Positions 2,870 to 56,720 of a DNA stretch of 64,000 nt are shown piece by piece; position 1 is the stretch's first letter, and every line of letters begins with the position of its first letter. The position numbers were made by a program, and so were the translations under genes. The notes beneath the pieces were generated by a model. The model had not been told where the DNA came from, searched no databases, and saw nothing but the letters and a program-made list of their open reading frames with translations. The DNA is from Octopus vulgaris. Lineage: Eukaryota. The stretch spans positions 32,736,001-32,800,000 of the forward strand of contig OX597835.1 of the NCBI GenBank assembly GCA_951406725.2, written 5' to 3'.

Positions 2870-3095
2870 TGGTGTATTGAAATGAATTATCTAGTTACGG
2901 ATTATTCAAAATTTAACCGATGGACCTAGAAAAAAAAACAAAAGACAAACATGAAGAAAAAAACGGTTGAGGGCTACGACTATGGGTACACACATCGCAA
3001 CATATGTGCATACATATATACATACATACATAAATAATATGATATATATATATATTTAGTGAAGGGAAGAAATGGAGCTGAACGAAGATTCTACA

Positions 3096-3205
3096 AAATT
3101 CCTTTTTATTATTTTCTACACATGTTTCAAAGGCTGCAAATTTCCAAATTCGGATTGAATAAGGAGACCATTTTGCAGCTTTCTCTTCAGGAAAAACAGG
3201 AATTT
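3096..3205 (-). ncRNA. Type I hammerhead ribozyme (left arm)
   Basis: Mirror copy of 4849-4958. Confidence 0.8.
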
Positions 3206-3799
3206 AAATCTCCAAACAAATGCGCAGCAAGCTATTCGAACAAAACGCTCCCTAGGAGCCCATGGTAAGGCACTAAACTGTCTCTCAATGTGCGTTGACG
3301 TCAGGGTGGGTGAAGGCCGACGAAAAAATCCGTTGGAATAAATCGAGGTCAAACTGCGGTTAAATTTGGTAGGGGAAGAATTCCGGAAAACCAAAGAGTG
3401 TGAATATATTCTGTATAACTAATGTTAATGTTCGAATTGTTTTAAGAATGAAAGCTATCTTATTTGGGTGTGAGAAACTACTTACATGTATGTGTGTGTG
3501 CGCCTGTGTATGTGTGGCAGTATGTTAGGAAGCAGCTAGAGGGAAGATATATTGCAGATATTGTAGGTCAAGCGGCTGATAAAAGCCTGTGTCTGTGTGT
3601 TCGTCTGTGGTCAGTTTATACACAGATGACATGTCAAAAGGGGAGTATAATCCCTGATATTGTTTCTAAATAAGTAGCAGATCATATGCTAAAAGGGGAG
3701 TAATTTCCCTTTACAAATTTATTTCAAAATTTTTTCCAAATTTTTTCCAAAATTTTTTTTCTTTTTCTTAGGACAGCAAGGTGTTAATTATCTTAGGCT

Positions 3800-4285
3800 T
3801 CAATTGTATGCAAGAAATGTGTGCCGCCTCCAGTGGGAACATCTGGAAGAGTTTTGCAAAATCGCGTTAACTAGCTGCCCTCGGGCGAACAAAATGTTTA
3901 AAAGTTCAGAGTTGCAGAGATTACAGATTCTTTTGCCTCTATCAAACGGTGCAGACACCGATAAAATCGACCATTCCAGTCTAAATGCTGAATTCGCGTT
4001 CTTCAAACGCCAGATTAATTTACTCAGTCCGGTCGCGTGTTGTTTTCTAAAATCGCGAAATGTTGTGAAGTGGTTCGATATTCTCACGGCCAATTTTGAT
4101 GATGACGCTCCGATATACAAGTAGACATCTGATTCAGTATAAACTCTGCATTGGTAAATGGCATTTCTAATCTTGGAATTGCTAGATAAGAACCTTATTC
4201 TATTGGGATTGGCTTCAGATATTAATACGGCGTTCTTATTACTATGATGATTGCGAGAACTGCGGCTGTCTTCGACATTATACAC
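3800..4285 (-). CDS. GIY-YIG endonuclease domain of PLE type (GTG start; RT absent)
   Basis: AIYQCRV...YLYIGAS...VRISNH...TGLSKLIWRLK...LEWSIL...CNLCNSE...LVN...RCSH: GIY-YIG Y/YIG/R/E/N motifs plus the PLE-type CxLC and C-x-H tail; no internal stops. Confidence 0.85.
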   Translation of the reverse strand: MYNVEDSRSSRNHHSNKNAVLISEANPNRIRFLSSNSKIRNAIYQCRVYTESDVYLYIGASSSKLAVRISNHFTTFRDFRKQHATGLSKLIWRLKNANSAFRLEWSILSVSAPFDRGKRICNLCNSELLNILFARGQLVNAILQNSSRCSHWRRHTFLAYN

Positions 4286-4848
4286 CCCATTATCAATACT
4301 ATTTAATGGAATATCACCTGTATATTCCCTGTATATTTACCTGTATATTTACTCCCCTTTTAGCGTGTGATCTGCTACTTATTTAGAAACAATATCAGGG
4401 ATTATACTCCCCTTGTTTGACATGTTATCTGTGTATAAACTGACCACAGACGAACACACAGACACAGGCTTTTATCAGCCGCTTGACCTACAATATCTGC
4501 AATATATCTTCCCTCTAGCTGCTTCCTAACATACTGCCACACATACACAGGCGCACACACACATACATGTAAGTAGTTTCTCACACCCAAATAAGATAGC
4601 TTTCATTCTTAAAACAATTCGAACATTAACATTAGTTATACAGAATATATTCACACTCTTTGGTTTTCCGGAATTCTTCCCCTACCAAATTTAACCGCAG
4701 TTTGACCTCGATTTATTCCAACGGATTTTTTCGTCGGCCTTCACCCACCCTGACGTCAACGCACATTGAGAGACAGTTTAGTGCCTTACCATGGGCTCCT
4801 AGGGAGCGTTTTGTTCGAATAGCTTGCTGCGCATTTGTTTGGAGATTT

Positions 4849-4958
4849 AAATTCCTGTTTTTCCTGAAGAGAAAGCTGCAAAATGGTCTCCTTATTCAAT
4901 CCGAATTTGGAAATTTGCAGCCTTTGAAACATGTGTAGAAAATAATAAAAAGGAATTT
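4849..4958 (+). ncRNA. Type I hammerhead ribozyme (right arm)
   Basis: Stem I TTTTC/GAAAA with distal AAATTCCT/AGGAATTT; core CTGAAGA (4864-4870); stem II GAAAGCTGCAAA/TTTGCAGCCTTT; GAAAC (4926-4930); short stem III containing palindrome ACATGT; cleavage triplet GTA (4935-4937). Confidence 0.85.
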
Positions 4959-4995
4959 TGTAGAATCTTCGTTCAGCTCCATTTCTTCCCTTCAC

Positions 4996-5046
<51 letters not shown>

Positions 5047-5099
5047 GTATGTATGTATATATGTATGTACACATATGTATGTATGTGTGTATGTATGAT

Positions 5100-5288
5100 A
5101 GATCGGTAGCCACTACACAACTTTTTTCTCTCCATGTTTCTCTCCTTGTTTTTTTTTTCTATGTCCATGTCTGTAGAAGAGCGTAGGCTCGAAACGTAAA
5201 ATACTTTTTCAATTCCTGAGCGTTATACTAATACATCTGTTTGTTTTCTACACCACCCATCTTCGTATTTTTTTTTTTGAACTCTTCC

Positions 5289-5292
<4 letters not shown>
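5100..5292 (+). mobile_element. Short PLE pLTR-like element with hammerhead-like motif, ending in (TA)n
   Basis: CTGTAGAAGAGCGTAGGCTCGAAACGTA; same element at ~19900-20090 (-) and ~46153-46388 (+). Confidence 0.6.
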
Positions 5293-5524: not shown

Positions 5525-5599
5525 GTAGAAAAGTTTCTTTGTGTATTGTTTTGGCATTAATCAGAAGTGCTCAGATAAGAGACCCGAGACGCAAAAGTA

Positions 5600-6095
5600 T
5601 TTTAAAATGTTAAGGAGAATTTCAGATAGGTTCACCAATTTATTTATACATATATTCTGCCATAGATCAATGCACATAAGTCTTTAAAAAATACTAATGT
5701 ATCAGTGGTTAAAATATTACAACATATTAAATATTCATGAGTACACAAATATATAAAGATCTAATATACATATAAATATATAAATAGATGTGTGTAAATA
5801 GGTAAGAACGGCTCTTCGGAAGACTTTGATTTATTCACCTTTTTGTAAGGGCATACTTTCATTCTTAACAATTTTTACAACGCCCCGTTCTAACCTACTT
5901 ACACCAATGTATTTATATATGCATATTAGGTTTTTGTTACATATTTGTGTATTCATAAATTTTTAAAATGTTTTAATATTTTAATAACTTTAATATACAT
6001 TGGTATATTTCAAACACTGATATGCATTGATCTATGGCAGAATATATGTATAAATAAATTGTTGAGCCTATCTGGAATTCTCCTTAAAATTTAAT
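5600..6095. repeat. Imperfect fold-back (~200-bp arms) between (TA)n tracts
   Basis: TTAAGGAGAATTTCAGATAGGTTCACCAATTTATTTATACATATATTCTGCCATAGATCAATGCA mirrored at ~6022-6087; another copy of the arm at ~2668-2753. Confidence 0.75.
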
Positions 6096-8609: not shown

Positions 8610-9492
8610 AATGAAGGGGTGCCCAAAAGAAACCTGAATTTCGCAATATTATGTTTTATACATTTTTAAATATTTACACTTTTATCGCCTTCAAAGTATT
8701 CTCCATTTGAAGCAATGCATCGTTCCAAGCGCGTTTTCTACTATTCGAAGAAGTCCTGGAACTACCTCTTCCATTGTTTGTATTCTTCACCTCCCGCAAA
8801 TTTGAAAATTTCGTAGCAAAATCACCTTCAATTTCCAACTGTTCTAAAATCCGGATCAATTTCCAACTGTTCTTTCAGTTCACGACACGCATTCAATCGT
8901 GAATGCTATTGATCTTCCGTGAGAAAGTGAGGCACAAATTTTGCTCTAACTCTTTTCATTCGTAATTCCTCGCTCAAAATTCGTTGGCACGAGCTCCAGG
9001 ACACTCCAGTCATATCAACATTCTCGTCAATTATTCGCTGATGGTCCTCCAAGACCAGTTTGTTAATTTTCCTGATGATTTTATTCGTTCGAGAGGTCAC
9101 CGGTCGCCCTGAACGAAGTTGGTCATCAAACGACTTCTGACCATTCCTAAAGCATGGGAACCACTCGTAAGCTTGCGTTTTGCTCATAGCAACGGCCTTG
9201 TAAGCTGTTAGGAACATGACAACTGTTTCGGCCTCAGTTTTTCTCAGCAGAAAGCAGAATTTTACGGAAGTACACCGTTCCTTCGTTTCAGCCACCGCAA
9301 AAATCGATGAACAGGGAAGAAACACTGCAAGATAAAGACGCACCACGTGGCAGTACGATTTCACTCGATGACTCTGGATGGCATACTGATGCATGAGGAT
9401 CGCATCAAGCGACTCCTAGCTGCAGAAGCCTGAACTATAACGAGCTTATCCAACAGAGAACGTTTCTGATTTCTTTTGGGTATCTTCTCGTA
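8610..9492 (-). mobile_element. Mariner transposon, internally deleted, both TIRs degenerate
   Basis: N-terminal HTH region in ORF 8906-9394 (KFCF..YEWF..RSGRP..KFVPHFLTEDQ) joined to C-terminus ..RLERCIASNGEYFEGD; TIR-like CCCAAAAGAAAC (8622) and TTTCTTTTGGG (9470). Confidence 0.85.
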
Positions 9493-10976: not shown

Positions 10977-12107
10977 TTCCCATTCCCAGCAGTAGAGCAA
11001 CGAAACTTGGCACAGTTATTAGTCTTTTTCTACATAGGAACCACCCAGAGTTACGCATTTCTCCCATCGTTTCATGCAGCTCTGGAGACCGTTTTTGTAG
11101 AAGACCCCAGCTTGGTCCTCCAACCTGAACGTGACTTCAGAAATCAAGCTGCATCATCTGGGAAACGCTTTCCTTTCAAAAACAACTTCACGACTGGGAA
11201 GAGGTGAAAATCAGAGGGTGCAAGGTCAGGAAAGTAGGGGGTTGGGGGAGGAGTTCATAGCCATACGACTATGCTTCTGATCTGGCGACAAGCGAGTTAT
11301 GGACCGGAGCGTTGTCCTGCAGGAGGAGGATGCCTTTGCTGATCTTTCCCCGCCTCTTGATTTTGATAACTTCTCTTAATTTCCTCAAAAGTAAAGCATA
11401 ATAGGCTCCTGCAATTGTGGTACCCTTTGCCAGGAAATCTGTCATCACTACTCCGTCCTGGTCCCAGAAGACTGTGAGCATGACCTTGCCAGCGGAGGGC
11501 TGCACCCTTGCCTTCTTTGGAGGGGGTGAGTCACGGTGCTTCCACTGCATTGACTGGGCTTTGGTCTCTGGATCATCGTAATGGACCCAGGTTTCATCCT
11601 GTGTAATCAGTCTTTTGAAAAATTTTGACTCATCTTCTTGGCACATCTCCAAATTCATCTTCAAGCACTCGACGCGTTCTTGCTTCTGGAAAGGCGTGAG
11701 CAACCTGGGAATCCATCTGGCAGACACCTTTTGCATATGCAAATGGTCATGAATGATAGTTTCCACAGACCCGGTACTAATCTTGACCTCATGGGCTATT
11801 TGGCGAATAATTATGCGTCGATCTTCCAAAATGGCAGCCTCAACTTGACGGACAGATGCCTCATCAATGGCAGAAGGGGCGACCAGATCTGGGAGCTGTT
11901 TCCACAGAGTTCCGACCATGTTTGAATTCACGATGCCAGCATCATCACCATAAGTTACTTTCATTTCATCAAAAGTCTCCCGTGGTGTGTGTCCTTTCAA
12001 ATACAAAAACCGGATCACTGCTCGACACTCAACAGGCTCCATTTCACACTTGATTCGGTTCAAACACCTGTAAATCAGAAACCACAATTAATTCAGAGCT
12101 GAAAAAT

Positions 12108-19899: not shown

Positions 19900-20092
19900 G
19901 AGTTTACGAAAAAAAGACAAAAGACGAAGACAGATGGTGTACAAAACAAACAGATGTATTAGTATAGCACTCAGGAATTGAAAAAGTCTTTTACGTTTCG
20001 AGCCTACGCTCTTCTACAGACAGGGGCACAGAAAAAACAAGGCGAGAAACAAGGAGAGAAAAAAATGTGTGTAGTGGCTAACGATCTATCAT
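19900..20092 (-). mobile_element. Short pLTR-like element with hammerhead-like motif
   Basis: TTTTACGTTTCGAGCCTACGCTCTTCTACAG is the reverse complement of the 5171 motif; flanking sequence also matches. Confidence 0.65.
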
Positions 20093-23018: not shown

Positions 23019-23364
23019 GTTTCTTTATTACCCACAAGGGGCTATACATAGAGGGAACAAACAAGGACAGATAAGCGAATTATGCCAATTAAATCGACCC
23101 CAGTGCGTAACTGGTAGTTAATATATCGACCCCGAAAGGATGAAAGGCAAAGTCGACCTCGGCGGAATTTGAACTCAGAACGTAGCAGCAAACGATATAT
23201 CTACTTCTTTACCACCCACAAGGGGCTAAATACAGAGGGGACAAACAAGGACAGATAAGCGAATTATGTCGATTATATCGACCCCAGTGCGTAACTGGTA
23301 CTTAATATATCGAACCCGAAACGATGAAAGGCATTTCGCCCGGTGTGCTAACGGTTCTGCCAGC
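23019..23364 (-). mobile_element. SINE family A, dimeric
   Basis: Two tandem copies of CCCACAAGGGGCT..GGGACAAACAAGGACAGA..CGACCCCAGTGCGTAACTGG. Confidence 0.8.
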
Positions 23365-23404
23365 AAACTATTTAAATTCGTTTAAGGATAGAATTAAGAT
23401 GCTC

Positions 23405-23640
23405 ATCACAAGCTTGAGCAAGTTTTTCTGGTCACTTAAGAATAAAAACGCCAGCTATAATATAGAATGGGAAAATGATTAGCACAGCTGTACATTATGT
23501 AACAAGAGAAAACAATGTAACTTGTGCATAGAGGAAATTTATCTTATTTTTGTATCATCAAAGCACCACTTACTTAACAGTAGACTAGAACAGACATTGA
23601 GATGTCCGCACCTGCATCGGAAAACATTTAAATACTTCCA
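23405..23640 (+). pseudogene. PLE GIY-YIG C-terminal fragment
   Basis: TSLSKFFWSLKNKNASYNIEWE..KQCNLCIEEIYLIF..LLNSRLEQTLRCPHLHRKTF aligns with the ORF at 3800-4285. Confidence 0.75.
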
Positions 23641-29158: not shown

Positions 29159-29779
29159 TTGATGGGGCCTAAAAGCTCGGACGTTTCTGACGTTCGTCTG
29201 CGCTGTAACGATGAAGCTGTAATCAGTATTTTTATAACATCATATATATTTGGAAACCCGTCATCTAAATTTCATTTTATGTAATTATGAATACACAAGG
29301 CTGACGATCTAACACTCTCTTGCAATAAAATATAAGAGCAACTTAAAAGTTTTGATTAAACAATGGATCTTTTCGGTTTGAACGGCAGTTTTTAACATAA
29401 TTTCTAGGTAACTAAAAGATTTTAAGCCTCGTATACTGGTAGAATCTGTTTATAAAACATCCTTTTCTCTTGGCTTTATTGAGAAAATTCTATAGTTTCT
29501 AGTATATTTGTTGTTTTTTTCTTCAATTTCTGCAATTTCAACCAATCACTGACGTCTATTGAGGTAAAAAAACATTCTGTGCCGTATGAATATCTCCCTC
29601 GTTTAAGAAACAGATTGGGTTTATTTACATTTGTGAAGAAAAAAAGATACCCTTCCACCCACCTCTAACCCTAACCTAAAAAATTACTATAACATTGATC
29701 GTAGCGCAGTCAATTTTTTAGAGATTATTACGAATTAAATTTGACTCGCAGACCTTATGAAAAATCAAATGAAATTCTA

Positions 29780-30773
29780 CATCACCTTCACATTGTCTTT
29801 AAACACTCAGGAAATATTGTGAAATACTTTCCCAGAAACATTGGTTAAAGGATATCCAAAATATCCTCCAATAAACAGTCTTCTAACCGTGTTGTTGCCT
29901 ATTATAATGTGACTCTGAACAGAAGCAGCTTAAACGACAAGATCCAGGATATCCTCCGACATAGATTGTCTAATTCTAGAAATACCAGAAAAAGGAAATT
30001 TATATATTATAGAGCTGCTTTAAGTTTGAATGTCCTTGCCAAGAACCACTTCCCTAATGGTCATAAGTGCCACAAATTTTTTAACAGATGCAACCTGAAG
30101 GAAGTTAGACTTGCATGGATAATTCTGCCGTTTTTTTAAAAATCTAGAATTGATAGAAAGAAATTAGCTACTTCTCACAAACATAATTACTCCCCTAACT
30201 GCAAATTTCTTAACATGTATACATACCATCTATATGTTAAATGTCTTTGGAAAAATTTCGGTTACTGTAAGAAGGTCTCCACCAATTATAATAACAACAA
30301 TGACGTAAATTACTATCCAGGATTAAATTGAGAACTCAAACAACTGCAGTTGCATTCAGTATACGCATGCGCTTAGACATGAAGAAGAAGGATCAGCAAC
30401 AACAGTTTTGAAATACATCAGTTTGAATGTTAGATCTAATGTCAGTCTCTTTCTAAATCTTGCCAAGAGCCACTTCCCTAATGGTCACAAGTGCAACAAA
30501 ATTTTTAACAGATGTAACCTGAAGGAAGTTAAAACTGCATGGATAAGTCTGCCGTTTCCAGTAACAGCAGTTTTGAAAGGCATTTCCAACAACAAAATTC
30601 AATCATCAAATTTCCTCCTGCTACATCAATCCAAGTGCTGTTCCTGCTTGTCTGTAAAATTCAAAATCCTTACACAACCTCTTAATTCACTAAGTACTAA
30701 ATCAGAGTTGATTTCTTTACGTTCCAACCCTAGAAAATTTATCTTACAAAACTTAAAACTACCAACTTCTTGA
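29780..30773 (+). pseudogene. Decayed PLE 3' region (RT thumb/linker, duplicated, plus GIY-YIG tail)
   Basis: FPRNIG*RISKISSN..YYNVTL..RKRKFIYY..LAKNHFPNGHKCHKFFNR (repeated at ~30460) and ..KSELISLRSNPRKFILQN. Confidence 0.65.
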
Positions 30774-36054: not shown

Positions 36055-36816
<762 letters not shown>

Positions 36817-36826
36817 ATATCTATCC

Positions 36827-36860
<34 letters not shown>

Positions 36861-37801
36861 AGAAGCTGGCAACTTTGAGGGGCATCCCGCGAAAACTGGG
36901 ATGCGGGACGAGCGTGTCTGCATACGCGGACGACGTCACCGTCATAGTGTCTAGCCACGAGCACATCGAGCAGGTCGGCGAGACACTGAAAAACTACGAA
37001 GCGGTGACAGGAGCGAAAATCAACCGGGAAAAGTCAGTGGGCTTGCGACTAGGCACCTGGAGAAGCAAGCCCATTCCGTTCACCAGCGCCTCCGTCGTGG
37101 GACGCTGGACCGACGGCCCGGTTGAGTTGCTCGGGGTCTGGTTTGGTCCGGACCTCCAAGTGGAGAAGAACTGGAACGAGATAACGAGTAGGGTGGTCAC
37201 TCTCGCCCGGCAATGGGCCGAGAGGAAACTGTCCCTAAAAAGTCGGGCGGAGGTGGCGAACACGTACATCGCGTCCGTCATCTACTACCGCCTGACCGTC
37301 GTACCTTGTCCCGACCCTACCATCACCAAACTAGAACGCATTCTCTTTCGCTTCTTGTGGAAAGGATGCGTCCCGATGGTCAGGCGATCCATTTACTGTC
37401 AACACCCGTTAAAAGGAGGGCTGGGCATGTCGTGGTTGATGATGCGCAGACACGCGCTGAGACTGCGACATATCTGGCTCTATGTAGACGACGGTGAACA
37501 GGTGTGGTCGCCGTTTGTGAGGCACGCTTTCCCGCAGCTCGTCTCCATGACCGAACTGCAGTCGTGGATCAAAAAGAGGCCGAGGAAGGGTGAATGGCAC
37601 CGCGAGTGTCGCGTTGCTCTCAAGCAACTCTGCCGTCCCGGGTCGACCTTGAGTGACTTCAACACAACCAAAGCATTCTATAGGGGATTAGTGGAGGGGA
37701 GGTACGACGACGATCTCGGGGCGAACCTGGACGTCGACGAGGAATACGTGACCCGCCTGTTCAGGACGACTTTCGGGCCAGGGCCCATGGACAACTTCCA
37801 G
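36861..37801 (+). mobile_element. Tx1/L1-like LINE internal RT fragment
   Basis: VSAYADDVTV..GAKINREKS..LLGVWF..GGLG; starts immediately after (TATC)n, ends abruptly in degenerate TA/TG repeat. Confidence 0.9.
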
Positions 37802-46152: not shown

Positions 46153-46388
46153 TTAGCCACTACACACATTTATTCTCTCCTTTTTTCTCTCCTTTTTTCT
46201 CTCCTCTTTTTTCTCTCCATTTCTTCTCTCCTTGTTTCTCTCCTTGTTTTTTTCTGTGTCCCTTTCTGTAGAAGAGCGTCGGCTCGAAACGTAAAATACT
46301 TTTTCTATTCCTGAGCGTTATACTAATACATCTGTATGTTTTGTACACCACCTGTCTTCGTCTTTTGCTTTTTTCGTAAACTCTCCCT
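46153..46388 (+). mobile_element. Short pLTR-like element with hammerhead-like motif, ending in (TA)n
   Basis: CTTT-CTGTAGAAGAGCGTCGGCTCGAAACGTA-AAA; matches the 5100 and 19900 copies. Confidence 0.65.
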
Positions 46389-46534
46389 ATATATATATAT
46401 AATTCTAGACAAGTATATCATATCTTGGTGTGTGCATGTATGTATATCTTCACGCACATATAATATTAGTTTGGAAAGGAATTCCTGGCGCATTGGAAGA
46501 TAGGAAAGAAATAAATGTTTCTTTGCTCATAATA

Positions 46535-48530: not shown

Positions 48531-50672
48531 ATGCACGCAAAGTGCAAACCTAAATGACATGGCAGTGAACGCTGCAACCACTTGCGATAACAGCACTGTC
48601 ACCACCACCACTAACAACAACAACAACGGGACTACTACTGCTACCACCACCGCCTCCACCACCACCACCACCACCGCCACCTCATCCACTACCTCAACTA
48701 CCAACAACAACAACAATAACAATGACAACAAGAATAACAACAATTGCGCCACCATTTCGACATCTGCTGCCACGGCTGTCTCTTCTGTCACGGCTGTCTC
48801 TTCTGCCACTGACACCACCGCCAACACCAACAACAAAAACAACAATAACAACAACAACAATTCCGTTCAGACCTTGTTTCCTCCAACAACAAAAACTGAA
48901 TGGAATAAATAAAAGACTGTGACCACCAAACAAATTGACAAAAGCTGCTTGAATACAGGGATAAACTATGCAAGTAATTTTCCACCCCTTCCTACTTGCA
49001 CAATCAAACGAAATACACCGATTTTACCAACTGCAGCCAACAACAACCTCACCACCAGCAACAACAATAACAGAACAACAACAAATTTCGCCGAGGCGAT
49101 AAAAGAAAAAAAGACAACAGTATATTTTACTGCACAGCAGATAAAAGATATCAATATTCTAATAACGGAAGTAGATGGTATAGTAAAAATAAACATACCT
49201 CAAGAAATATTAGAAAATGAAAAAAAAAAGAACTATTATATATAAAATAATTAATAAGAAAACAAAAAGTCCAGAGAAGGCTAACACAAGCAAAATCGAA
49301 AAATGCTTGAAACCCATCTGGAACTACAAAGAGCATGTGACCTGGTGGAACAAGTTCGCACACATACAAGTGATCTTCCACACTGAAGAGTTAGCAAAAC
49401 GTTTCTCAACGCTAACTCTTCATTCAGATGAACTGCAACTAACACCAAGCTATCGTGGACAGAAAGTGACTAAGATCACATTAAACAATGTCCCAAAAAT
49501 AGCGAACAATCTATGGCTAGTAAAGGCCTTATGTGTGAAAATGGAAGATTTCACAATTTTAGGAACTACAGTCACGGAGCACAAAAACTAGGTGGGAAAA
49601 AAAGTAGAATTTCTACTACACATCAACCAGGATGATATCAAGAAAATACCCACCCAGATATGTGTATCAGAAGACCACAAGTTGTATGTGGTCGTCGATG
49701 GCAGAAGACTACGTTGCTACATATGCGGCAGTGAGCAACACCTAAAAAAGACTGCAAATATGCCGCAAGAAAACTACAGCAACGACAACAGCAGCCGGAA
49801 AAAACAAAAAAGCCAGCTTTACTACCCACACCACAAATTGTACAAACAGGACTAATCACAGAAAATAAAAAAAACAAACCTCACCAACCAAACAACCACA
49901 CCAACTGCACCAAGAGCAGAAGCAACACCAACAACAACAACCAAGAATAAACCAACTCCCAAACCAAGGACATCTGCCAAAAAGACACTCATCGAAAATG
50001 AAGAAACAATTACTACTCCAAATCCCCACAAAATTGACACCCCAAACAACACAACAATACCTACAATCACTCAAACACAAAATACCCACACCCCACCTCC
50101 AAAACCGCATACACCACAACCTAACGCTCACCAACCAACACCAACAACAAAATCAACACAGTCTACAATAGACCCCAATATTTTCCCTCTCCCAAGCTCT
50201 GATTCCTCTGATTTGTCATTAGACGAAGAATACACAGAAGATTGGCAAATAACCACAGGGGGAGAAGAAAAAGGGTAAAAAAAGAAAAGAAAAGATAACA
50301 AACAAAGCAGGAAGATACACCACTCCCGAAACAAAAACATCCACAGAAAACAAACACATCAACACAAACACACCATCATCAAACCCCCCAACAATGTTGA
50401 CAGCCATGAACACAAACAACCACGACCTAATGGAACACATTAGGTCAAACACCAACATAACTGAAAACGACATAAAAACAAATAACCACCCATGCACAAC
50501 ACCACCACAACACATTAAAATAATACACGTAACACAGAACACATAGAGCACCCTGAAATCTCTTTACCCTGATGCAGTAGGGAGATTTCAAAAATATTCA
50601 TCAAAGAAACTATACAAAAACCTCATGGAAGAAGACTGTGAGGTGAAAAACAAAGGACTTTCGAACAAGTAA
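48531..50672 (+). pseudogene. LINE ORF1 (disrupted)
   Basis: T/N-rich N-terminus, central domain (HIQVIFHTEELAKRF), zinc knuckle CYICGSEQHLKK[D]C across a frameshift, P/T-rich tail; several stops. Confidence 0.7.
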
Positions 50673-50739
50673 CCTTTTCTCTCTCTCTTTCCTTTTTTGC
50701 ACTTTCTTTTCGTGTGTAAAACACAATTTTTATCGGAAC

Positions 50740-53700
50740 ATGCTCAGAATAGGCAGTATAAATGTACGTGGCTTGGGGTCGCCTTGGAAACAAGGCTACC
50801 TGTTAAATGACATCAAGTCACTAAATCTGAATATCATAGCCATCAGTGAGACCAGACTACACAGCTCGCGGGCACTCAAGCACAGTTTCGGTACACATTT
50901 CAACACTTATTTTTCTCCGTGTCTACCGAGAATGGGCGGAGGTGGCACCGCGGTGCTTCTCCGGAAGAGTCTGGATCTCAAAGTAAGAGCAATTTTCCTA
51001 GACCCGGAGGGTAGGCTGGTCGTTTTGGATGTCGATGGCAGCAATGAGTGTGCTTTTCGACTGATAGCAGTTTATGCTCCGTCCTTAACAGGCCGACTAG
51101 ATTTCTTTCGACGTTTAGAGTCTTTCATGGGAACGTCTCGTCCTTTACTTTTAGTGGGGGATTGGAATCCCACCCTGCACACGCATCTAGACTACGTGAG
51201 CAGAGATAGCAATAGAAGGGGATGCAAATGCCTCAAAGACCTGCTCAGACGTTTCCAACTGTCTGACAGGTACCGACTGGACCACCCGAATGTGCCAATG
51301 TGGACATGGAGTAACCGCATCGGGTCGTCCAGATCATACTTAGATAGAGTATTCTGTAGAACAATAGATAAAAATAGTGTAGGTTGTCCACAATTTCATA
51401 TAGTCAGTTACACAGATCACAAGTTTGTGACTTGTACACTTGACGTAGATAAGACACATAGGCAGGGTCCTGGTTACTGGAAACTGAACGCGTCTTTTAC
51501 AGCACGACAGGTTTACAGGGACCGGATCAGCACATTAGTTAAGAGAGCGTTGACGGGTACCATCATCAACAACAGATGGTGGTATGCCCTAAAAAAAGCA
51601 ATTAAAGCAGAATCGGTCAGATACAGTAAAGCCCTAGCATTAGACCGAAATAGAATAGAGGGAGAATTAGTTAAGGTTTTAGAAGAGGCACTTAGAACTG
51701 GCATCGCGTCCAACGTGCTGGCGGCGAGATTGGCCCTCGACCAACACCTGAACGCCAAACACGAGGGATGCGTTGTCAGAGCTAGGATGCGTGCTCTGAG
51801 GAACGAAGGAGTTGGAGCCGCCCAAGAGGCCCGAGTGGTGGAGGTGCAACGAGGCAACAGAGCCACCATCAAGTCTCTTATAGATGAACAGGGGCGCGAA
51901 TTGCTCGAGCCTAAAAGGATGTGTGGGGCTTTTCAACAACACTTCATCCAACTGTTTGGGACAAGTGGTGGGTCAGAATGCAGAGTGGACTTTAGTGCCT
52001 ACCTGCATGCCTTTCCACGACTCTCAGCAAGAGAGGTGGAGTCTTGTGAAAGGCCTATCACAGCGGCGGACGTACAGGATGCGATGGGGGCGCTGCGCGA
52101 GAGACAAGTCACCAGGCTTGGATGGTCTGCCCTACGAACTTTATTGTCATATGCCAGACTTGTTTGGAGGCGTCTTGGCAGCTGTCTACTGCAACTGGCA
52201 GCAAAACGGGAGTATTCCTGCTTTTGTAAAGCGAGGAGCAGTGGCACTGATTAAGAAAGACCCAAACAAGGGGGACGTCATAGATAATTTCAGGCCCATC
52301 ACTCTGCTCAACGCAGATTTGAAAATTTTGGCCAAGGTGTTAGCCGAGAGGTTGGCGCTTGTCATCAAGAAACTAATCGACAAGGCGCAAACATGCGCCG
52401 TGCCGGATAGAAGTATTCATGAGAGCCTCCATAATGATGCGCTACATCATAGACAGGGTAGTTAAGAATCCTGGCATGGGTGGGGCGCTGATCAATTTGG
52501 ATCAATCAAAAGCTTTCGATAGGGTAGACCATCACTACTTCGAGGCTGTCCTTAAAGCGGCTGGTTTCGGTCCAGTTTTCCGCGGTTGGATCGCTGCCTT
52601 ATACAGCGGCTACGAGCACGTCGAGCTACGAGCACATCGAGCTGGTCGGCGAGACACTAAAAGAATACGAAGCGGTAACGGGAGAAAAAATTAACCGGGA
52701 AAAGTCAGTGAGCTTGCGGCTCGGCACCTGGAGAGGCAGGCCCATGCCGTCCAACAGCGTCTCCATCGTGGGACGCTGGACGGACGGACCGGTTAAATTG
52801 CTCGGGGTCTGGTTCGGTCCGGACCTCCAAATGGAGAAGAACTGGGGCGAGATAACGACTAGGGTGGCTACTCTCACCCAGAAATGGGCTGAGAGAAGGC
52901 TATCCCTGAAAGGTCGGGCGGAGGTGGCGAACGCGTACATCGCATCCGTCATCGACTATCGTCTGACCGTTGTGCCTTGTCCCAACCCTACCATCACCAA
53001 ACTGGAACGTATACTCTTCCGCTTCTTGTGGAAGGGAAACGTTCCGATGGTTAGGCGATCCATTTGCTGTCAACACCCGCTAAATGGAAGGCTGGGCATG
53101 CCGTGGTTGATGATGCGCAGACATGCGCTGAGACTGCGACATCTCCGGCGCTTCATAGACAACGCTGAACAGGTGTGGTCGCCTTTTGTGCGGCGCGCTT
53201 TACCGCAGCTCGTCTCCTTGGACGAACTACAGTCATGGATCAAGCAGGGACCGAGGCTAGGCGAATGGCACCGCGAGTGTCGCGTTGCTCTCAAGCAACT
53301 CTGCCGTCCGGGATCGAATTTGTGCGACTCCATCACAACAAAGACATTCTATAGAGGATTAGTGGAGGGGAGCTGCGACGACGAACTCGGGCAGAGTCTG
53401 GGCGTCGACGAGGAACACCTGACCCGCCTGTTCAGGACAACTTTCGGGCCGGGACCTATGAATAATCACCAAAGATCCCTGGCCTGGCAGTGCTATCGAG
53501 AAGCATTACCTGTTCGTGTTAAGCTCTACAGACACGGATCCAGATACACTGGACCGACTTGCCCGAGATGCGGTCAGAGCGACGAAACCGTTCTGCACGC
53601 ACTCGTGCAATGTCCAACCATTTCAGACCTGTGGGCTTAAGCCGAACGGCTGCTGTCACGTGTGGGACGTATCCGCCTATCGGCCGAGTCTATCGTGGGA

Positions 53701-53980
53701 GTTGTTCCGCCCCCTTCCCTCAACCGGGAAGGCAAGGCAGTTTTCATCGTACTGGTGGCCATGGTGAAAGAATGTGTGTGGTGGACCCGAGCGAAAGAAT
53801 TAGAGACAAACACATTACCTCTCTGGCCAATCGCTCATCAACTTTTTCAAGTACCACTTGAAAAGGAAGGTGAGAATGGAGAGGGAAGTTTTGTCTCGCG
53901 AAAGATTCAAAAAAAGATGGGTGAATGTTGCAAAGATGGTGCGTGCGAGCGACGAAACCATTTTGAGCATGATCTTGTAG
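50740..53980 (+). pseudogene. LINE ORF2 (APE endonuclease, RT, C-terminal CCHC), disrupted
   Basis: SINVRGL, SETR, VYAP, GDWN, SYLDR, TDH, GPGYWKLN; KSPGLDG, FRPITLLN, LDQSKAFDRVDH; CPRC..ET..H....C; frameshifts, and the QG..SP/YADD segment is missing at ~52610. Confidence 0.93.
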
Positions 53981-54309
53981 ATCGTAAAAAAGAAAGAGAG
54001 AGAGCATTTTGCTCTCATGTGGTTATTTCCTCCCTGACTGAGGTTCCCGTGGTCTTTTCTGTAGGCTTTTCTTCCCACGGATGAGCCCAATCTTGTTTTA
54101 TCAATGTTTTTATCTTTGTTTCTGTGATACACGATTTCTTTTCTTTTTTTCCTCCTCTCGATCCCTTTTGATCGCAATCTTACATTTATTTTCTTTTTTT
54201 CCACCCTCGAAAAGAAAAGCTCTACATTTGGTTTTGTCCCCTCTGTATTCAGCCCTGTGTGGCTAATAAAAGAAAGTTATCTATCTATCTATATCTATCT
54301 ATCTCTCTA

Positions 54310-54611: not shown

Positions 54612-55150
54612 GTTTATGTATTTGTATATATATTTATGTATGTGCATGTATTTGTATTTATGCATGTATGTACATCTATACACAGACACACACAATAGCG
54701 TGTTGTTAAGGGACATTATAATGTTGTACACATTCAGTGTTTACTGTTCAACCAACCAGCTGAAATAACTTACTTTGAATAACCAAAGGTCGATATTAAC
54801 GGCTTCGATAAATCATGCAATATAAAAGATGATAGATTCTCAGCTGTAAATACATATTTCTTGGATAAAATCGTAAAACACTTTTATACATAAAACATGC
54901 ACACGCAGAAACATGCCCACACACATTAACGCAAACAAACGCAGTTATATGTGTACATGCATAATACATACATGCGCACAAACATACATACATACATACA
55001 TAAATACAAATAAATAAGCAGATAAATAGATAGATAGATTGATGGATAGATAGATAGATAGATAGATAGATAGACATATATATATATATAAATGATAGAT
55101 GGATAGAGAGATAGATAGATAGATGGATAGATAGATAGATAGATAGATAT

Positions 55151-56719
55151 GTTTCTTTATTAGCCACACAGCGCTGCACACAGACAGAACAAATTACAAG
55201 GTAGAGCTTTTCTTTTGGGGGTAAAAAAATGGGGGTTGGTTTTCGATGAAAAGGGATCGTAAAAGGAAAGAAAGAGGACAAAAAAAACGGGAGGATTTAA
55301 AAAAAGGGGGGGAGAGGAAAAAAAAAAGAAAAGGGGAGAGGAAGAAAAAAGTTGATCAATAGGGATCGTAATCACAGAAATGTCAATATGAAGTGTAAAG
55401 GGGAGGACAGGTGAGGTTTACCCGTGGAAAGAAAAGCCTACGGAAAAGACCACGGTAACCTCGGTCAATGAAGTCACATGTTATATTTCTTTTTTTTTTT
55501 GCAAATAAGCAACTCTCTGTATTAATTTTTACGGTTCATAGAATCATAGTCAAGGTGGCTTCGTCGTTCATACATGCCATCCTTGCTACATTCACCCATC
55601 TTTTTTTAAAACATTCACTAGACAAAACTTGCCTCTCTACTCTCATTTTCCTCTTCAAGTGATACTTGAAGAAGTTGATGAGAGATTGACCAGAGAGGAA
55701 AGTGTTTGTCTCTAATCCTTTCAGACGCGTCCACCAGATACATTATTTCGCCATAGCCACAAGTATGATAAAAATAGTTCTTCCTTCCCGTTTGAAGGAA
55801 GGAGGCGTGACGATATTAACGATAGACTCGGCTGATAAACCGACACGTCCCACACGTGACAGCAGTCGTTCGACAAAAGCCCACAGGTCGGAAATTGCTG
55901 GACACTGCACGATTGCGTGCAGAGCAGTTTCGTCGCTCTGCCCGCATCTCGGGCAGGTCGGCCCCGTGTTTCTCGAGCCATGCCTATAGAGCTTATCCTG
56001 AACGGGTAGCGCTTCTCGGTAGCACCGCCAGGCCAGCGATCTCTGGAAGTTGTCCATAGGTCCCGGGCCGAAAGTCGTTTGAAACAGGCGGGTCAGGTAT
56101 TCTTCGTCGACGCCCAGGTTTGCCCCGAGATCCTCGTCGTACCTCCCCTCCACTAATCCCCTATAGAATGCTTTGGTTGTGTTGAAGTCACTCAAAGTCG
56201 ACCCGGGACGGCAGAGTTGCTTGAGAGCAACGCGACACTCGCGGTGCCATTCACCCTTCCTCGGCCTCTTTTTGATCCACGACTGCAGTTCGGTCATGGA
56301 GACGAGTTGCGGGAATGCGTGCCTCACAAACGGCGACCACACCTGTTCACCGTCGTCTACATAGAGCCGGAGATGTCGCAGTCTCAGCGCGTGTCTGCGC
56401 ATCATCAACCACGCATGCCCAGCCCTCCTTTTAACGGGTGTTGACAGCAAATGGATCGCCTGACCATCAGGACGCATCCTTTCCACAAGAAGCGGAAGAG
56501 AATGCGTTCTAGTTTGGTGATGGTAGGGTCGGGACAAGGTACGACGGTCAGGCGGTAGTAGATGATGGACGCGATGTACGTGTTCGCCTCCTCCGCCCGA
56601 CCTTTTAGGGACAGTTTCCTCTCGGCCCATTGCTGGGCGAGAGTGACCACCCTACTCGTTATCTCGTTCCAGTTCTTCTCCATTTGGAGGTCTGGACCGA
56701 ACCAGACCCCGAGCAACTC

Positions 56720-56720
<1 letters not shown>
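55151..56720 (-). mobile_element. Tx1/L1-like LINE, 5'-truncated, flanked by (GATA)n
   Basis: ORFs 56405-56716 and 55743-56630 match ORF2 C-terminus; intact 3' end; (GATA)n at ~55020-55149 and 56721-56902. Confidence 0.92.

Follow-up and report, generated by a model that had tools for sequence, protein, structure and literature searches.

A probable 5'-truncated PLE copy with an inverted 3' repeat in Octopus vulgaris, from a Hydra-like family without linker cysteines

Penelope-like elements (PLEs) often bear an inverted 5'-truncated copy at their 5' end, which gives flanking inverted repeats (PMC8557442, in the sections drawn on here). In rotifers, 5'-truncated members flanked by inverted pLTRs are described, together with Asn-rich inserts between the reverse transcriptase (RT) and EN (PMC3846280, in its relevant sections). 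The Hydra clade lacks the CCHH motif and carries CxxC and CxH motifs, hammerheads and insertion into (TA)n, and a role in guiding PLEs to (TA)n has been suggested for its Cys linker (these parts of PMC8557442). AT-rich DNA is preferred in vitro by a Poseidon element (PMC11167929, in part), whose clade has no linker finger, and an O. vulgaris repeat library holds 30 recently active Penelope families (PMC13282606, in part).

Here we describe a locus in Octopus vulgaris, located in a 64,000-nt stretch of contig OX597835.1 (the whole stretch analysed, hereafter the window, in which all coordinates are counted). A preliminary description had offered two readings of it, a young 5'-truncated PLE or a nuclease-only cassette, that is, an RT-less element propagating as a unit. 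The former is supported, the frame being the C-terminal end of an RT-linker-nuclease protein, while the latter is not, since the frame lacks a methionine and starts in the middle of the linker of an RT-nuclease ORF. We therefore consider it very probable that the locus is an ordinary 5'-truncated PLE copy with an inverted pLTR, and hold with equally high confidence that it comprises the 3' 1.3 kb of a PLE (linker end, GIY-YIG nuclease and hammerhead-bearing 3' repeat), joined to a second, inverted copy of this repeat. The inverted-arm structure is already known as a textbook Penelope insertion product, and the locus itself matters little; what remains of interest is a Hydra-like lineage, whose named members are all from Octopus sinensis, that lost linker cysteines which its nearest RT relatives keep.

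Architecture of the locus

Two inverted arms enclose a 645-bp spacer (3704-4348), with the native 3' repeat downstream of the nuclease frame and in the same orientation (Table 1). In a gapped alignment, the arms are 99.2% identical over 652 columns, differing by 3 substitutions and one 2-nt indel, all at most 76 nt from the inner ends, and the outer 570 nt of both arms are identical. Such clustering at the inner ends has a chance of about 0.0002-0.002 (computed after the fact) and is not accounted for by simple ageing; gene conversion, a second template or assembly consensus smoothing would each yield it. The preliminary description had drawn the arms as 3001-3703 and 4349-5077. Near-identical inverted arms around a 645-bp spacer are indeed present, with the outer limits now corrected to 3054 and 4999; 3001-3053 and 5000-5077 consist of (TA)n and degenerate microsatellite and are not clearly element. 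Both ends lie within (TA)n, and neither a target-site duplication nor a 30-40 bp tail at one end is readable there. We found no RT within the unit.

Table 1. Features of the locus, in window coordinates
Feature	Coordinates	Strand	Basis
(TA)n at left end, putative target microsatellite	3041..3056	.	sequence
Native 3' repeat (pLTR / 3' untranslated end), ending in (TA)n	3054..3703	-	arm alignment; in family contigs the arm is contiguous with the spacer
Predicted type I hammerhead in native arm, core 3190, sense with the frame	3096..3205	-	descriptor; mirror of 4849-4958
3' untranslated stretch from stop codon to arm	3704..3799	-	sequence; family contigs cover the stretch
3' end of PLE ORF: last ~55 linker codons (Asn/Ser-rich, no Cys) and whole GIY-YIG nuclease	3800..4331	-	alignments to PLE proteins
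Junction filler, 16-17 nt, in which a 9-nt word of the truncation point recurs twice more	4332..4348	-	sequence; contigs stop at 4331/4332
Inverted copy of 3' repeat at 5' end of truncated element, head-to-head, ending in (TA)n	4349..4999	+	arm alignment
Predicted type I hammerhead in inverted arm, core 4864, GAAA at 4926, predicted cleavage after 4937	4849..4958	+	descriptor
(TA)n at right end, putative target microsatellite	4998..5042	.	sequence

Head-to-head inverted repeats around a truncated copy are likewise found in the Pen2 subfamily of Adineta vaga (PMC3846280) and in Fig. 2 of PMC8557442, as far as these parts of the two papers go. Compared with the Pen2 subfamily, the present locus belongs to another clade and host, lacks a direct 5' pLTR and has no readable target duplication. 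The native arm has an imperfect direct repeat of ~20 nt at its inner end (3637-3656 and 3691-3710); the inverted arm stops inside the second copy (3691-3710), and the differences between the arms lie at or near both copies.

The nuclease frame and its relatives

The spacer contains a stop-free frame on the minus strand (3800-4336, 178 codons), whose motifs align to PLE nucleases at Y61, YIG 74-76, R85, H89, E144 and N157, such that all catalytic motifs are still present. Cysteines occur only at positions 63, 138, 141 and 166, none of them ahead of the nuclease. The frame contains no methionine, and no open frame leads into it from the arm. What had been called an intact GIY-YIG frame is thus stop-free and retains Y, YIG, R, E and N, but without a methionine it is a reading frame and not an intact gene. 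By chance, it would still be open in 42-75% of copies at 3-1% substitutions, and we attribute its open state to the youth of the copy and not to selection.

Profile searches recovered little, with no Pfam match for the frame or for its relative P0002 and a weak GIY-YIG match for P0001 (E 0.031), and a sequence search returned 2021 relatives at E up to 0.001. In the predicted structure, residues 1-40 are disordered and a confident domain follows; the best fold-search matches were the GIY-YIG nucleases T4 EndoII, UvrC, Hpy188I and I-TevI, none of them at E up to 0.001.

The origin of the frame is revealed by predicted proteins of Octopus sinensis. A near-length search with the frame gave one match among 46 candidates, P0001, whose cluster partner P0002 (XP_036366068, 544 aa) matches the frame at 81% over residues 409-516. 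P0002 consists of the second half of a PLE RT, an Asn/Ser-rich linker and then the same nuclease at its end, and its RT region matches the full-length PLE protein P0031 at E 6e-33. Two further O. sinensis models extend from RT thumb to linker (P0003) and from linker to nuclease (P0065), and P0003, P0065 and P0001 together overlap RT thumb, linker and nuclease; P0001, P0002, P0003 and P0065 are gene predictions, each of which covers the ORF in part. Judged from these alignments, the octopus relatives encode an RT-linker-nuclease protein that has the nuclease as its last part. Some families in the cited part of PMC3846280 similarly have an Asn-rich insert between RT and nuclease. A separate search for longer relatives of the frame found none among 534 candidates and is weak, since it also missed P0002. 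The preliminary description had itself named, as a finding that would undo the cassette reading, a unique junction at ~4349 together with an ORF that is simply the 3' end of a full-length PLE elsewhere; this is largely borne out, by the O. sinensis RT-nuclease ORF and by family contigs that run past 4331-4332.

The low-complexity N-terminal end of P0001 was considered as a sign of an RT-less gene and ruled out, as P0002 and P0003 show that it is linker. Octopus annotations list pieces of P0001, P0002, P0003, P0065 and P0011 as host genes, with names that bear no relation to them (kinase dyrk1, myb-like protein I, GATA zinc finger protein). The practical point is that retrotransposon pieces of the copy's family are carried as host genes in the O. 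sinensis annotation.

In terms of classification, the family encodes RT and GIY-YIG nuclease in one ORF (P0002, P0003, P0065, P0001), of which the copy keeps the nuclease end only, and it shares with EN+ PLEs a nuclease with Y, YIG, R, H, E and N, an inverted pLTR with 5' truncation and a hammerhead motif in the pLTR, predicted by descriptor match. Like the Hydra-clade PLEs of Craig et al. (2021, PMC8557442, in the sections on this clade), it has a C-terminal GIY-YIG nuclease without CCHH, a hammerhead in the 3' repeat and (TA)n ends. More precisely, a single cysteine (63) lies between Y61 and YIG 74-76, so that CCHH is absent; CxxC and CxH motifs flank E and N (C138-C141, E144, N157, C166-H168); and this one copy has (TA)n at both ends. 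The nearest RT relative, P0005, carries WRA and DKT where the N-terminal motifs of the Hydra clade are RWK and DKT. Other placements fit less well. The nuclease ends in a stop codon and 3' repeat, with the RT upstream in P0002, unlike the nuclease N-terminal to RT of Naiad and Chlamys; the CCHH of Penelope/Poseidon, Neptune, Nematis and the stand-alone nucleases of Terminon is lacking; and the two hammerhead copies are inverted around coding sequence instead of forming the tandem non-coding units of non-LTR retrozymes. Terminon stand-alone GIY-YIG ORFs, non-LTR retrozymes and non-autonomous Chlamys (MRC1) are comparable as RT-less PLE pieces with a nuclease or a hammerhead. However, Terminon nucleases have both Zn-finger motifs, which the nuclease at this locus lacks, and retrozymes (preprint 10.64898/2026.07.22.740005, in part) are tandem and non-coding, whereas the nuclease here is the tail of a fused ORF.

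The family departs from the Hydra clade in its linker. The CxCX5C motif is missing, with no cysteine in the 37 residues before the nuclease in the copy, P0001, P0002, P0065 and P0066 and one in P0068, and a conserved Cys-free stretch, shared by the copy and these five relatives, follows a long Asn/Ser-rich insert in its place. Among 214 proteins, 205 had a nuclease match and 149 of these enough upstream sequence for counting, and 129 of the 149 have at least 2 cysteines upstream of the nuclease; the other 14 Cys-poor proteins fall at scattered places of the tree, and their frames look broken. The preliminary description was therefore correct that the N-terminal extension lacks a Cys-rich linker, a trait of the family that is common to five relatives. 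In a quick nuclease tree (124 columns) the copy groups with P0001 and P0002 (96) and P0065 (88), while a quick tree of 60 Hydra-motif RTs, with no outgroup from other clades, places P0002 with P0004, P0005 and P0011 (support 99). P0004 and P0005 keep the CxCX5C motif, and hence the loss of linker cysteines looks derived. Since Hydra-clade features are present and CxCX5C is absent, we assign the copy to a Hydra-like lineage of EN+ PLEs that lacks the linker finger, and not to plain Hydra. Hydra-1_Obim from Octopus bimaculoides (PMC8557442, in part) keeps CxCX5C and differs in RT and hammerhead, and is another family; five peptide words of the frame are absent from the portion of the PMC8557442 supplement that was searched.

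Since the copy still lies in (TA)n although it lacks the Cys linker suggested to guide PLEs there, the family provides a natural loss for testing the proposal. The surprise is modest, because the Poseidon element prefers AT-rich DNA in vitro (PMC11167929, in part) and the (TA)n preference rests on one copy. We found no report of a nuclease-only PLE unit or of a Cys-less Hydra lineage among the literature listings and paper sections covered, and Repbase, Dfam or the O. vulgaris repeat library may already hold the family.

Family copies and the origin of the inverted arm

Public sequencing runs indicate that the copy has many relatives. Parts of 3704-4995 occur in 20 of the 24 listed runs, none of which contains half or more of its words (best run, 0.45). 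From four public runs, 516, 1078, 258 and 152 contigs aligned at 85-99+% identity, which identifies a multi-copy family. The native joint between arm and spacer (3704 to 4349, opposite strands) is present in all four. Among the contigs listed, two (X1 record 5, X3 record 28) leave the similarity at 4331 and 4332, running on for 63 and 34 letters, and similarity to P0002 begins at 4330, the same point where the contigs diverge. No contig piece directly spans the inversion junction at 4349 among the 32 listed of 2035, a share too small to prove the junction unique. Within the spacer, contig depth is at or close to its minimum in the bin 4320-4363 in all four runs. In contrast to the depth over the frame, that over 4848-4995, the hammerhead end of the arm, is roughly ten to a hundred times higher in all four runs; summed contig depth is no copy number, and the excess may point to numerous very short 3' fragments or to derivatives of related families that carry the hammerhead.

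Variable sites in the frame fall into two classes. Among 21 listed frame sites (taken from 40 listed of 182 variable sites), 7 set the copy apart from every contig of the four runs, with 6 nonsynonymous changes and 1 synonymous, and 14 differ among family members, with 5 and 9 respectively. Against a random expectation of 78% nonsynonymous changes, the family class departs (p 0.0007) and the copy-only class does not, with a Fisher p of 0.063 between the two. As far as these counts go, they would fit an active family under constraint and a drifting copy; because the best run contains 0.45 of the words, the copy-only sites may also be species or subfamily differences. The two arms agree with each other but differ from all contigs at 4423 and 4671. 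Places with A>G differences numbered 23 in the contigs of one presumed-RNA run and, much the same, 22 in a run not labelled as RNA, a comparison that speaks neither for nor against editing.

In our preferred explanation, one aborted insertion into a (TA)n run likely produced the locus, and the copy has likely been dead since. We infer the supply of RT and nuclease, the nicking, the stop near 4331 and the re-priming: a full-length family member would have supplied RT and nuclease and nicked the (TA)n microsatellite, target-primed reverse transcription from the 3' end would have stopped near 4331, and re-priming, marked by the two extra 9-nt words, would have continued onto a second repeat copy in reverse, yielding the inverted arm. 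The junction filler is likely the product of repeated re-priming or of end joining.

It is very improbable, in our judgement, that the locus is an RT-less nuclease-only unit between inverted pLTRs that the family RT copies in trans as a whole, whether or not the unit's own nuclease takes part. An open frame with every catalytic motif and arms as alike as these are what such a unit would show, rotifer pLTRs alone have been inferred to mobilise a passenger gene in trans (PMC3846280, in part), and the listed contig pieces give no proof of a unique junction. Yet the frame has no methionine, receives no open frame from the arm and begins in the middle of the linker of an RT-nuclease ORF; no second copy of the element was found in the 64-kb window; the listed pieces include none across the junction, where depth is at or near its lowest; and the changes confined to the copy are mostly nonsynonymous among the listed sites. 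We attach just as little probability to the proposal that an RT-less Penelope derivative with a Zn-finger-less GIY-YIG nuclease spreads via octopus (TA)n runs and that its hairpin transcript feeds ADAR or small-RNA pathways.

A different history could have produced the same structure, with the inverted arm formed or homogenised after insertion (by fold-back repair or gene conversion) or with the RT part of a longer insertion lost by microhomology-mediated deletion, of a kind known in PLE copies (PMC3846280, in part). To this we give slightly less credence still. The confinement of all arm differences to the inner 76 nt, next to an identical outer 570 nt, and the non-contig letters shared by both arms at 4423 and 4671 speak for it, but inverted 5' copies are a routine PLE insertion product (PMC8557442, in part) and the templated junction filler fits synthesis during insertion equally well. 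A 28-nt exact match between the outer flanks, without a further occurrence in the window, reaches beyond the (TA)n; yet 78 of 17,205 TA-run flank pairs also share at least 28 nt, many of them overlapping or TA-laden. Such a rearrangement would alter the history of the locus, not its identity or inertness. Least probable of all is an assembly artefact, in which an inversion was falsely introduced or family copies were joined into a chimera. The 570 nt of exact identity, the trouble that tandem and inverted PLE structures cause in assemblies (PMC8557442, in part) and the lack of a junction-spanning piece among those listed would agree with it, whereas the arms differ at 5 columns, the two flanks differ from each other, the junction carries a templated filler and the structure is the expected biological form.

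The hammerhead motif and other repeats in the window

Each arm carries a candidate type I hammerhead. The cores at 4864 (+) and 3190 (-) are the sole matches in the window to a strict type I descriptor, and shuffled arms matched it once in 5000. The motif comprises a helix I of 5+8 bp, a helix II of 11 bp with a 31-nt loop and a helix III of 2 bp that closes around a self-complementary hexamer, and cleavage is predicted at a distance of 62 nt from the end of the arm. Its ribozyme fold has -19.1 kcal/mol, about 3 kcal/mol higher than the minimum-energy fold (-22.3), and the free fold of the region has a z-score of -1.9. Rfam returned no match in the window at gathering score and, at E up to 10, no hammerhead, only microsatellite-driven miRNA and similar matches. 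The preliminary description had claimed a fully pairable type I hammerhead in each arm about 60 nt inside the (TA)n; the two cores and their position stand, while the monomer, with 2 bp in helix III, is not fully pairable.

In the sections cited here, Cervera and de la Pena (2014, PMC4209133) described metazoan PLE type I hammerheads that likewise have a short helix III with a palindromic loop, a long helix II and pairs on opposite strands, located 100-700 bp apart; hammerheads of such architecture need a dimer and cleave weakly. The present motif, known from sequence, differs by its outer 8-bp extension of helix I and its 31-nt helix II loop and falls below all Rfam thresholds. It would likely work as a dimer, needing a partner copy. 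A long dsRNA stem with a sense ribozyme had been suggested for the transcript. In the prediction, a read-through transcript does form the duplex, with 644 arm-arm pairs, but if the locus were read through, this duplex would bury the sense ribozyme. At the outer helix I (4849-4858, 4950-4958), loose ends of related contigs, among the 24 listed of 186, have a changed letter on each side that would keep the pairing, which gives a hint of covariation, the letters coming from different contigs.

Several other repeats lie in the window. A short repeat family occurs at 5095-5290, 19912-20087 and 46220-46401 (88% between the three copies), with a ~78% similar piece at 2920-2995; it has a hammerhead-like hairpin with a variant core near 5180-5200, and (TA)n lies at the end of two of the three copies. 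These copies are possibly the 3' ends of another PLE family. The repeat at 5095-5290 and its relative at 2920-2995 flank the element in opposite orientations. A ~90-nt sequence has three copies (91-94%), all within a 3.5-kb stretch (2666-2752, 5575-5663 and 6034-6092), two of which are inverted around the element, with 5575-5663 and 6034-6092 also forming an inverted pair; the three may stem from an earlier, nested insertion in inverted form.

Older, decayed fragments of PLEs with the protein type of the copy lie at 23318-23629 and 29708-30524 (nuclease end; RT thumb region), with 25-50% identity to relatives. A broken non-LTR retrotransposon that retains parts of endonuclease, RT and zf-RVT, together with two further partial copies (50647-54084, 55109-56720 and 36214-37801), accounts for the other long inverted matches of the window, and mariner-type transposase remnants are present on the minus strand at 8906-9415 and 11269-12087.
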